A DNA stretch of 64,000 nucleotides, from positions 266,017 to 330,016 of the forward strand of contig MU053136.1 of the NCBI GenBank assembly GCA_013239625.1, given 5' to 3'. The DNA comes from Lama guanicoe (Eukaryota). Below, piece by piece: positions 13,187 through 56,545 of the stretch. The notes under the pieces are model-generated. The model had not been told where the DNA came from. It saw nothing but the letters and a program-made list of their open reading frames with translations, and did not search any database. Each line of letters begins with the position of its first letter. Position 1 is the stretch's first letter. A program made the position numbers and the translations under genes.

Positions 13187-26354
<13,168 letters not shown>

Positions 26355-33838: not shown

Positions 33839-33873
33839 NNNNNNNNNNNNNNNNNNNNNNNNNNNNNNNNNNN
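33839..33873. other. Assembly gap (N run)
   Basis: 35 N bases. Confidence 0.99.
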
Positions 33874-34247: not shown

Positions 34248-34269
34248 NNNNNNNNNNNNNNNNNNNNNN
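34248..34269. other. Assembly gap (N run)
   Basis: 22 N bases. Confidence 0.99.
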
Positions 34270-35748
34270 CCCCACGCGGCCCCCCCACCCCCGCCTCCCG
34301 CGGAAGGATCCGAGCCTCTTCCCAGGCCACTGGTGGCCAATCCCAGCCCTCCCCGGGGAGGGGGCCCCCTCCGAAACCACAATCTGCTGGGGGAGCCAGG
34401 AATGCCAGGTCCGGGAGGAGCCGGCCCCAAAAGATGAAAGTCGCGACTTGCCCTGCCCCGCCTCAAAGGCTTCTCGGGTAGTGTGCTGGGACTTGACCCG
34501 CCTCCCCAGGTCAGCATGTCACAACACGATCTCGGCCTGTCAAGTCACATGACCTCTGGCTGTCACTGACAACCTGGCCGTGTCTTTGGGCCAGGCGAGA
34601 CCATCTGGTCCGTCCAACCTACCCCACCCCCATTTACAGAAGGAGAAATGGAGGTCTGGAGCAATGGTGCAGGCCTGGCTAAGGACCTGTCACCGTCACA
34701 CCACCGCCTATACCTGCCATCTAGCCACAACCGGCCTTGTGACAGTTTCTACTTAGGACAAATTCTGGCTCCCCCATGAGGGTATGACAGGATACCTAAC
34801 AGGCCACCACATGTTTTCTACCTAATGGCACTAGAAAAATACTTTGCATTTTACATGGTGCTTTTCACTTTCGTTCAAGCTGTCTCCAAGTTCATAGTTC
34901 TCTCATTTTACCTCCACAACTCATTATCTCTCATTTACGAACGAGACCGGTGAGGCAGGGAGAGATTAGGTGGCTGGCCTAGGAGCCCTGAGCAAGTGAG
35001 GGACAGCTGAGTCTAGAATGTGGGCTCCTGACAACCGAGTCCAAAGCAGTCGTGCGCTCAGGTGCACGCAGTGTTCCAGGCAACAAGGCTCTACTGTAGC
35101 CCAAGCACCTATAAGGCAGGCGGCCTGTGCTTGGCTCATCACAGCCGGCAGTCACAGGACTGGCTGATCTAGCAGTGAAAAGGGCGGGCCTGGTCTTCAG
35201 TGAAGGGCACGAAAGCACCACGGTGGGAAATGATAGGGAGAAATAGTGGGACTCGAGTCCACCCGGCAAAGAGGAGGAATTCTGGCATGCTGAAGGCTCA
35301 TCAGAAACATTACAAAGATAAAAGTCTAAGGGTGCTCTTCAGAGAGGAGCTGAAAATGACTATCAGGGGGATTCAAGTTCTTCGGCCCTTTTAGGGGGAG
35401 TCCGGGGCTAAAAGAGAAGATCCCTTTTAGAGGACTCGAGAAGATGCAAACAATCCTGGTGGACGAATGCAAATTTTCAAAGAAAAGAGGTTTAAAAGAC
35501 CTGTGTCCATTAGCTAGGAGCGAGGGGGCCAAAGAAAACGAGAGCTCCTTATGGAGGAAGTAAAACGCGGGCTAAGCCAGGTGGGCAGAACAAGAGCTCC
35601 TGAAGGAGACAAGCTACAGTAAGGCTTCACACCGCAGCCTAGGGGCAACCACAGTCGATAGCCGTTGGCGCTGTTGGGTGCCCGGAGCTGGCGCCCCGCC
35701 CTCTCTACCTCCCCTCCCCCCTCCAGCTCTCCCCTCCGCGCGCGCGCA

Positions 35749-35755
35749 TGACTCA
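35749..35755 (+). promoter_or_regulatory. AP-1 site TGACTCA of the DDIT3 promoter
   Basis: Perfect AP-1 consensus about 240 bp upstream of the inferred TSS (about 35986), the position known for CHOP. Confidence 0.75.
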
Positions 35756-35899
35756 CTCACCTCCTCCGCGAAGCCTCGTGACCCAAAGCCACTTCCGGGT
35801 CCAACACCAAGTCGACCCCCAAGCGGGAGGGAGCGGGGGGGGCGGTGCCACGGGGCTCCTGAGTGGCGGATGTAAGGAATGAGGCGGGGCCAACGCCGG

Positions 35900-35918
35900 C
35901 GTGCCGCTTTCCGATTGG
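35900..35918 (-). promoter_or_regulatory. ER stress response element (CCAAT-N9-GCACG) of the DDIT3 promoter
   Basis: Minus strand reads CCAAT CGGAAAGCG GCACG, the known CHOP ERSE layout (NF-Y with ATF6/XBP1). Confidence 0.85.
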
Positions 35919-36022
35919 TAGGCTTCTGGATCCGCCCCCGAGAGGAGGACAAGGCCACGTTAAAAGATCTCTGCTCCGAGCTACGGAGGTCAGAGGCTTG
36001 AGTCTAAGGCATAGGGTATACC

Positions 36023-38368
36023 ATGTTGAAGATGAGCGGGTGGCAGCGACAGAGCCAAAATCAGAGCCGGAACCTGAGGAGAGAGGCGAGTACTGATTCC
36101 CCCCTCTACCTTTTACCCTCCTATCCTCGCGACACCAGTTGTCCTCTCAAAGTTAGGGCATCCGCTCTTTAGGATGTGGCCCCACCTCCTCCACGATGAA
36201 GTTAAGTGACCGTCCGGGGGAGGGATGAGGAGAATCCTTTATTCTGAAGTGGTGCTCACAGACCCTTCTTCCTTCGCGCGACAGCATCACTCCATCCCTG
36301 CCCGAGTACAGGCCCTGCTCTATGCTGTTCGGCGAAGGGGCCGCAGCCGCCCTTGGGAGGTTTATTCTCGCGTTGCTGACCCAAGGTCTCCTAGTTAGGC
36401 CGGTCCGGTGGGAGGCGGGGCAGCAGGACACACCCCCGCGCCGAGAACCCGTGGCTCAGGCCGCTGCCGCCGTTTTGCCAACAGCGGCCCTACCCCACCC
36501 CTAATCCTCTTTCCGCCGCGTCTCAGGGCCTGTATGGCCACGTCAGTAACTTGGGCTTCTGGATTCTCCGCAGGACATTCATTCTGCACCCTTGCAGAGA
36601 ACAGAACCTTAAGGAGACTGACATAAGCTTTTGGGAAAAGGGTGTTGATGGACAGGTGGTGATGGGTTTTCCTTTTCCCGCAGAGGCCCCTGGGCCTCCT
36701 GCACAAGAGAGCATCCTGGATCTTTTAAGTATGGGAAGCCATTTGGGGTCTCCCCAGTGGATTGTCCTTCCCCTGGGATCGGTCCCTGCCTCTTTCTCCT
36801 TGTCCTGTCTCCATCTAATCTCCGTGTAACCATTGCATCAGGCTAGCCCCCTGCTTGGCTCCGCAGCCCTCTGGCCCGGGGCTCCACTGCTGATGAAAGC
36901 TACGTCCCACACACTGGAAGGCAAGGAGGGTCCCCCAGGGAGGACAGCCCTGCAGAGAAACACTCAGGACGATATTGCATCTACAGTCTCCAGGGATAGG
37001 CAGCTGCCTCTCTGCCTCTGGGCTTCGTTCTTTCCCTTTGAGGGATTGGAGAGAATTTATCCATTCATTCCTAACAAATACTTAACTAGCACCTACTATG
37101 AGCCATTCAGTTTGGGGCCCAGGATACATCCATGAACAAGAGAGGAAAAAAGCTCTGCTCTCACAGAGCTTACAGTGGGAAGAGTAGACTAAGCAAATAC
37201 TTAAGTGCCACGCAAAAAACTAAAGCACAGAAGGGTGGAGAATGCTGCGTGGAGGTTACAGTTTACATTGGGTGGTCAGGGATCCCCTCACTGAGGTGAC
37301 ATTTAAATTGAAAGACCTAAAAAGAGGCAAGGCAGTAAGCCATGCAAAAAGATATGTGGAAGAGCTTTCCAGGAGAAGGAACAGCAAGAGCAGAAGTCCC
37401 AAGGTGGGAGCCTGCATAGTATCTAGGGAATTGGAGGCTGGTTGGCTGGAATAGAGTGAGCAAGGGGGAGAGTGGAGAGTGGCCAGTGAGAAAAGCAGGG
37501 CAAGGAAAGAACAGACTGTGTCCGACCTTCTAAGCCATTTTAAGGACTTTAGCCTTTTACAGGTGTGAAATTAGAAGGTTTTGAACAGAGGAGTGACACG
37601 ACCTGGCTTAAGTTTTAACAGGCTCACTTTGGCGGCTGTTGTGAATAGACTCTGGGAAGGGTGGCAGGAGCAGAAACTGGGAGACCTGCAGTCAAGGGAC
37701 TTCTGCGTTGGTGAGAAGATTCTGGGGTTTTGAAGAATGAGTTTAGAAATTTTGCTGCCGATCTGGATTGGATTGTGGGGTGTCAGAGAGGAATTAAGGA
37801 CAATACCAAGGTTTTTGGCTCAAGCAACTAAAGCTGCTGTATACTGAAATGGGAAAGACTTTGGAAGGGGAAGATTAGCAGGAGTTTGTCTTTGGGCATG
37901 TTAAGTGTGAGACGCCTATTCAATATCCAAAAGGAGAATGGCAAGTAAGCAGCTAAGAGTTGGGAGGTCCAGGCTGGAAATACACATTTGGAGGATGTCA
38001 GTGTGGGAATGGAATTAGGAAAAGGCCACTTGATTTGTTTCCTCCCCTGTAGTCCAGTCCTTACCCTGGCAGGTTTGAACCCTGCCTTGAATTTAGAGAA
38101 AGCTGAGTTGGCCACGATTTTGCTATTATGTAATCAGTACTACAGATGTCAGCAACTAAAAATAAAGGAAGTCAGGCTCTTCTCTGTCCTTGGAAATGGC
38201 TACAGGGACCAATAACTATCCATACTCTATAGGACAGGATGTAAGAAGGACCAGTAGGAAGCGGAAGATAAAAGAACCTGCCCCTCCCTTCCAAAAATGG
38301 CTAACATTTGTCTTTGATCCCCACAGTGTTCCAGAAGGAAGTGTATCTTCATACATCATCACACCTGA
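36023..38368 (+). CDS. DDIT3: DDIT3 inhibitory upstream ORF, 34 aa (MLKMSGWQRQSQNQSRNLRRECSRRKCIFIHHHT*), split over exons 1 and 2
   Basis: 36023-36085 joined to 38327-38368. Exon 2 is 38327-38374. Matches the well-known CHOP uORF, including the IFI stall motif. Confidence 0.92.
37062..38010 (-). mobile_element. L2 LINE fragment in DDIT3 intron 1
   Basis: Starts with the reverse L2 3' tail (cattcattc...aaatacttaactagcacctactatg) and continues with L2-like purine-rich sequence. Confidence 0.7.
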
Positions 38369-38825
38369 AAGCAGGTAAACGTAACCGGCCCTTTCCCAAA
38401 ACCAACCTCTAAGAGATGCTGCTTAGGCTCTCTTCACTGGGACCCTAAGAAATTATGAAAACACCTAGAGAAGGTGGAAGAGGAGGGTTAGAATCTGAGC
38501 AGACTTTTGTTGTCAGGCTACATCCAGCCTCCTGGCCTGCCCCCAACAAAGTGACCAGATCACTATTCTTAGAGCATGTCATAATTCAAAGGTGGCTCTG
38601 AGTGAGCGGTCAGGTGAGGTCTCACCACACCACACCTCAGTTCCCATCAAGGCTAGACTGACCCAAAGGACTGTGTGCCCAAACTCCCCATACAGGAGGA
38701 GAAGGAAGCACAGATGGTCTGGAGATGACCAATGGAGTTCCCCAGGGGGGCTGAGGACTTTTACCAGGAACTCATAGGAATGTATCAAGTGCTGGGCAAA
38801 GCAAGGAGGGAATATCATTGCCGAT

Positions 38826-39081: not shown

Positions 39082-39683
39082 ATGGCAGCTGAGTCACTGC
39101 CTTTCTCCTTCGGGACACTGTCCAGCTGGGAGCTGGAGGCCTGGTATGAGGACCTGCAGGAGGTGCTGTCCTCAGATGAAAATGGGGGTTCCTATGTCTC
39201 ACCCCCTGGAAATGAGGAGGTGAGAATGCTAGGCCAAAAGCTACCGGGGTGGGGGTGGAACTGCCCCTCACTTCTCAACTAAGAGCTACCCTGCCTTTCC
39301 TCATTCCCTTGAAGGAAGAATCAAAAACCTTCACCACTCTTGACCCTGCCTCTCTGGCTTGGCTGACTGAGGAGCAAGGAACAACAGAGGTCACAAGCAC
39401 CTCCCAGAGCCCCTGCTCTCCAGATTCTAGTCGGAGCTCTCTGGCTCAAGAGGAAGAGGAGGAAGACCAAAGAAGACCCAGGAAACGGAAACGGAGTGGC
39501 CAGTCCCCGGCCCGGACTGGAAAGCAACGCATGAAGGAGAAAGAACAAGAGAACGAAAGGAAAGTGACACAGCTCGCCCAAGAGAACGAACGGCTCAAGC
39601 AGGAAATCGAGCGCCTGTCCAGGGAAGTGGAGGCGACTCGCAGGGCTCTGATTGACCGGATGGTTAATCTGCACCAAGCGTGA
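39082..39683 (+). CDS. DDIT3: DNA damage-inducible transcript 3 (CHOP/GADD153), 168-aa bZIP protein
   Basis: Coding exons 39082-39219 and 39315-39683: [29 protein letters not shown]...[33 protein letters not shown]. Exon 3 acceptor at 39061. Confidence 0.97.

Positions 39684-39912: not shown

Positions 39913-56545
<16,633 letters not shown>

Follow-up and report, generated by a model that had tools for sequence, protein, structure and literature searches.

The window, the 64-kb stretch of DNA that was analysed, carries the DDIT3 (CHOP) gene on its plus strand with both coding exons open (Table 1). The product of the last coding exon matches C/EBP bZIP chains (C/EBP beta, E 7e-5), while a match of the DDIT3 product to Pfam bZIP_2 was found below the cut-off only. 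By synteny, the upstream gene in opposite orientation to DDIT3 is presumably MBD6, and the minus-strand gene at 39935-41500 is taken to be MARS1; the latter ends about 60 nt or less from the DDIT3 poly(A) signal (~39878). Joined over intron 1, with its second part at 38327-38368, the upstream reading frame of CHOP stays intact and has 34 codons from its first ATG. Its codon 16 encodes Arg where a published human primer has Trp, and the continuity of this frame makes the start of intron 1 (36086-36091) appear to be GC rather than GT.

Table 1. Features of the DDIT3 locus, with positions counted in the window
Feature	Position	Strand	Remark
Assembly gap 1, 35 N	33839..33873		~112 nt in the printed human sequence (hand count)
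Assembly gap 2, 22 N	34248..34269		~31 nt in the printed human sequence (hand count)
Empty site of the human AARE2-bearing Alu	35410..35440		approximate; placed by eye against the printed human sequence
CARE-like site AGATGCAAA	35442..35450	-	one mismatch to degenerate consensus
Lone remaining CCCCGCCC copy (SP1-type box)	35694..35701	+	two copies in the printed human sequence
Junction zone	35694..35721	+	left-copy sequence to ~35706, right-copy C-rich tract from ~35708
AP-1 site	35749..35755	+	motif match; human position from PMC6581940
c-Ets-1 site	35791..35799	+	identical to printed human sequence; 42 nt past AP-1 start, as in human
ERSE block	35890..35918		3 mismatches in 29 to human
TATA-like box and transcription start	35960..35992	+	predicted; start at ~35992, from human +1
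DDIT3 upstream reading frame, exon 1 part	36023..36085	+	predicted splice; resumes in frame at 38327
Perfect AARE core ATTGCATCA, intron 1	36832..36840	+	~+841; identical to CHOP AARE core
Second C/EBP-ATF-type site TGATGAAAG	36891..36899	+	opposite orientation, 59 nt downstream of 36832
AARE core with one mismatch	36974..36982	+	motif match
DDIT3 first coding exon	39082..39219	+	open
DDIT3 last coding exon, C/EBP-type bZIP	39315..39683	+	open to stop

The promoter of the window was compared by eye, with distances counted by hand, to the human CHOP promoter sequence as printed in PMC6581940 Fig. S3, and together with the motif matches this comparison found the two to be colinear. The human promoter has been described as carrying AARE2 at -778/-770, AARE1 at -310/-302, an AP-1 site at -246/-240, a c-Ets-1 site at -205/-199 and ERSE at -103/-76 (PMC6581940, PMC3179511, PMC1851658). 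The window resembles the human and mouse promoters, as far as these are printed there, in its AP-1 and Ets sites, its ERSE1, its TATA-like box and their spacing, and differs from them in lacking 100 nt that include AARE1, in lacking the Alu and hence AARE2, and in its degenerate ERSE2. AP-1 (35749) and ERSE (35900-35918) had been placed at the expected spacing by an earlier reading of the sequence alone (hereafter the sequence-only reading), and motif matches and the printed human spacing bear this out. Both half-sites of ERSE1 (minus strand, 35900-35918) are kept; in ERSE2 (35890-35908) CCAAC stands for CCAAT and the second half-site is altered. The mismatched site that the same reading had reported at 35442 was also found there, as the CARE-like AGATGCAAA. 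As a replacement for the AARE this site was rejected, since its mismatch falls in the core.

The AARE1 segment is absent from the assembled sequence. No copy of the perfect core ATTGCATCA is present on either strand of 34500-36000, in agreement with what had been claimed from the sequence, and the window has no AARE1 core at its canonical place about 56 nt 5' of AP-1. The 20-nt AARE primer printed for human and mouse (PMC1851658) has 8 mismatches in its best match anywhere in 34600-38400. The sole perfect ATTGCATCA of the 64-kb window lies instead in DDIT3 intron 1. A perfect core arises in only 0.7% of 3000 shuffles of the 1 kb on either side of the transcription start, so that absence of the 9-mer is unsurprising alone and the claim of a loss depends on orthology.

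In the printed human promoter two copies of CCCCGCCC lie 100 nt apart, and AARE1 lies within the 12 nt that immediately precede the second copy (PMC6581940), in agreement with the published human coordinates of AARE1 and AP-1. The one copy in the window is preceded by the human left flank, about 23 nt of which are identical to the printed human sequence, and is placed 55 nt ahead of AP-1 like the second human copy. The net loss relative to this human sequence is 100 nt by hand count, and by eye no other indel in the 1.7 kb upstream exceeds about 35 nt. The breakpoint repeats in the printed human sequence consist of an 8-nt perfect repeat with a similar C-rich continuation (by eye). The left copy still agrees with the window over the five bases past the 8-mer, and the right copy agrees with it over 14 bases from 35708, which places the crossover probably at ~35702-35711. 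The sequence-only reading had proposed a deletion between two CCCCGCCC microhomologies; the sequence of Fig. S3 agrees with this by eye, with the crossover now refined.

The human sequence that holds AARE2 is one that we take to be an Alu. Human AARE2 therefore appears to be Alu-derived, and hence probably primate-specific rather than a general mammalian element. The loss of AARE2 was accordingly rejected as a camelid event. Within 34600-38400 the best match to the AARE2 9-mer has 2 mismatches. With both the Alu and AARE1 missing, the assembled promoter is left without either AARE.

Two origins for the missing 100 nt had been put forward in the sequence-only reading, namely a real rewiring of CHOP induction and an assembly collapse. 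Both remain the right alternatives, and the evidence leans towards the assembly, short of settling the matter. We give somewhat better than even chances to the loss being an assembly mis-join in an animal with an ordinary CHOP promoter, a weighting which, like those of all the readings below, is a matter of judgement. The AARE1 segment is thus probably not absent from the animal itself. The segment would lie between two similar C-rich tracts of a GC-rich promoter, at which short reads would thin out and the size of a gap would be underestimated. The two tracts could then have been merged in register, either by gap closing or by PCR products slipping from tract to tract. A third drop-out in this region, with a similar underestimate, would have brought two look-alike ends close to touching and ready to merge. 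That reads dropped out here, that a mis-join followed and that the animal has the segment are all inferred.

The neighbourhood of the junction is consistent with such an error. GC-rich N gaps had been noted nearby, and the two that were found, at 33839-33873 and 34248-34269, are the only ones in the window and lie 1.8 and 1.4 kb upstream of the junction, so that two assembly failures at similar tracts are seen less than 1.9 kb away. The human counterpart of gap 1, as printed, is some 77 nt longer; unless the camelid sequence is truly shorter, gap sizes here can thus be wrong by an amount close to that of the loss. C/G-run tracts were scored with a G4Hunter-type score, and a score of at least 1.6 gave 121 tracts in the window, with the junction region 35690-35741 scoring 2.44. 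A score of at least 2.2 together with a local GC of at least 0.65 is reached by 3 of the 121 tracts, namely both gap flanks and the junction, under thresholds chosen post hoc (9 tracts at a score of at least 2.0, 15 at a GC of at least 0.6). By these post hoc thresholds, the junction has the setting of a false deletion, a GC-rich promoter with neighbouring gaps at like sequence. Hidden in the first of the two gaps is probably also a first-exon splice donor of the upstream opposite-strand gene.

Several observations count against a mis-join. The C/G-rich exons of the presumed MBD6, 4-7 kb off, were assembled with open frames, and N was put by the assembler at the other tracts and not at the junction. 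A plain de Bruijn mis-join also needs more than an overlap of 8-20 nt; k-mer graphs do not normally mis-join on short overlaps. On the other side, Kim et al. (2022; PMC9516821) report that, in Sanger and Illumina assemblies, false indels and missing sequence are enriched in proximal promoters rich in GC. The false promoter deletions of that study resemble the present case in their GC-rich 5' regulatory DNA and in gaps at like tracts, and differ from it in that the loss here is seamless, without N, and is known from the assembled sequence alone. The AARE is in addition deeply conserved, a single 20-nt primer serving for human and mouse (PMC1851658), which also speaks for its presence in the animal.

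The same anatomy could be that of a true deletion. Rather unlikely, in our judgement, is a real deletion common to camelids, or to South American camelids, which would have arisen by slippage or microhomology-mediated repair between the C-rich repeats and would have left ATF4 input intronic or weakened, with AP-1, Ets and ERSE1 kept. Direct repeats around G-rich DNA are true deletion hot spots, and repeat- or microhomology-mediated deletion at G-quadruplex-prone DNA proceeds by polymerase theta end joining and replication slippage. The present loss is similar to such deletions in that short direct repeats flank the roughly 100 nt removed and the DNA is C/G-skewed, and by eye against the printed human sequence it is a clean, in-register loss of one repeat spacing. 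PCR slippage and gap closing yield the same signature in vitro, and the signature is therefore no proof of a germline event. Mice null for CHOP are viable, from which it follows that a loss of AARE1 would not be lethal. CHOP promoter fragments without AARE and ERSE are still inducible through AP-1 and Ets (PMC6581940), which would fit a shared deletion, and AP-1 has been described as conveying the mitochondrial stress input to CHOP (PMC1950685).

The difference between human and camelid could also have arisen in the opposite direction, through a gain of sequence on the way to human and mouse, or the element could have moved to another upstream place. This reading is given very little credence, AARE-dependent control of CHOP being found in other mammals; it is left some room by the bovine alignment in PMC1950685, which as printed spans -278 to -222 only, and is opposed by the want of a close match to the printed human and mouse 20-mer in 34600-38400 and by the upstream sequence being colinear with the printed human sequence by eye.

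Public sequencing runs were consulted for the stretch 34500-36000, which 20 of the 24 listed runs hold (8 studies, 4 organism labels), the four runs with a share of 0.00 being excluded from the holder counts. Among the 20 holders, nine are flagged as possible sources of the sequenced DNA. None of the 20 contains all of the 147 sampled words, and the shortfall has no assignable position. The share of words is 0.99 in one holder, 0.97 in 12, 0.96 in one, 0.95 in three and 0.94, 0.91 and 0.90 in one each, with no run at 1.00 or 0.98; if the shares are rounded, 0.99, 0.97 and 0.95 correspond to 1-2, 4-5 and 7-8 missing words. These steps fit a constant of 1-2 words plus about 3 per SNP, and 1-2 words are also what would be lost at a junction that has 8-16 nt of microhomology. 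Runs under four organism labels reach word shares of up to 0.97-0.99, which is in favour of a deletion shared among camelids; that all words occur in no run is against it.

The run data bear equally on the possibility that the sequenced animal carries a real deletion allele, rare or segregating, most camelids being intact. Such an allele would show the same repeat-bounded anatomy, and we assign it a lower chance again than a shared deletion. Run X1 (0.99) stands about 3 words above the 0.97 plateau, the footprint of one SNP or of a junction. A SNP accounts equally well for this step, and X1, itself flagged as possibly the source of the window DNA, is yet 1-2 words short. A new 100-nt deletion at exactly AARE1 in one animal is furthermore rare a priori.

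A toy coalescent population model (16 settings, 400 trials each) was used to weigh the shortfall. The best holder was missing 1-2 words in 51-88% of the trials with a private junction versus 0.3-15.5% of those without, in a model that left out homopolymer or base error, shared drop-out and the removal of human-identical words. When the 0.97 plateau was added as a second condition, 1 of the 16 settings favoured the shared case. As regards a mis-join, homopolymer or base error elsewhere in the stretch or a shared drop-out would give an equal shortfall of words, and the stretch contains the homopolymers G8 at 35835 and C6 at 35716. Removal of human-identical words from the index would also give a shortfall, and the junction would then be present in the best run; a stretch identical to the printed human sequence is present, for example, at 35770-35802 (by eye). 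The run words consequently count with little weight for a private junction, about 1.6 to 1 by our own estimate.

Expression data from a camelid were also considered. In the supraoptic nucleus of water-deprived dromedaries ATF4 and CHAC1 rise (PMC9508118), and DDIT3 does not appear in the sheet of that paper taken as its list of 209 changed genes, whereas a CHOP rise in rat is stated by the authors, which would suit a shared deletion. TRIB3 and ASNS are also absent from this list, the groups comprised n=5 animals each, and the dromedary may be another species than that of the window. The dromedary data are close to uninformative on the question. The term CHOP does not occur in PMC6965514 and is mentioned in passing only in PMC12937260 and PMC10621195. 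The literature search, to which subscription papers were mostly external, gave among the papers listed no report of AARE loss in camelids and none of an intronic site in CHOP. A search for a mammalian orthologue by the AP-1 motif gave 0 matches in metagenome, viral and genome contigs, and plasmid contigs gave no motif match. The only metagenome match to the AARE motif (L001, 601-620; 20 nt) was rejected as chance, lying by eye in a bacterial transporter-like gene.

The C/EBP-ATF consensus is TGATGNAA, and the second of the intron 1 sites in Table 1 fits it. The sequence-only reading had named the site at 35442 as the nearest to an AARE core; that statement stopped at the promoter and overlooked both the perfect core and this second site. 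The two are the closest pair among the 12 C/EBP-ATF-type sites of the window. When the intron was shuffled, 0.12% of 5000 shuffles had two sites within 60 nt and 1.2% of 3000 had a perfect core, both tests having been chosen post hoc. The cluster 36832-36982 is a possible ATF4 enhancer that has been overlooked, with or without a real promoter deletion. It follows from the pair that even a real deletion in the promoter need not abolish ATF4 control, and the pair could buffer the loss of AARE1 if that loss is real.

A perfect core with a second site 59 nt off in intron 1 is in favour of a deletion shared among camelids, although the cluster test was picked after the sites had been seen, and the sites would have little bearing on turnover if they are present in human or mouse too. 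ChIP in human intron 1 (+1163 to +1372) found no ATF4 (PMC1851658), which also speaks against intronic input after a shared deletion; its forward primer maps to 37204 in the window, about 370 nt from the 36832 site. No match to ATF4 peaks in DDIT3 intron 1 was found in 12 of the 24 supplement files of PMC10637723, and the supplements of PMC12569010 name Ddit3 without coordinates. The locus resembles the SNAT2-type intronic C/EBP-ATF elements cited in PMC8150958, according to which such elements act independently of position and orientation, in that DDIT3 is an ATF4 target whose intron 1 holds a perfect core; it differs from the SNAT2 element in that the DDIT3 pair is recognised here purely from its sequence. 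That camelids truly lost the founding CHOP AARE and never had the Alu-borne one, with ATF4 control passing through the intron 1 pair or being weaker, we regard as doubtful, a shade more so than the shared deletion as such.

If the mis-join that we favour is correct, the locus is a clean case of a seamless false deletion in which a textbook element of regulation vanishes, and comparative screens for lost elements would be misled by it. If the loss is real, camelid cells would allow a natural test of how strongly the induction of CHOP and cell death under stress rely on AARE1, and of whether a site in an intron can take its place. Were ATF4 control then to run through the intron 1 pair, or more weakly, the locus would represent a natural knockout of a promoter element, accompanied by enhancer turnover, in animals that are adapted to scarcity of food and water. 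The intron 1 pair is a cheap lead whichever reading holds. Elsewhere in the window, a long pure C run at 21113-21165 reaches the maximum score of 4.0 and may be a sequencing or assembly artefact.
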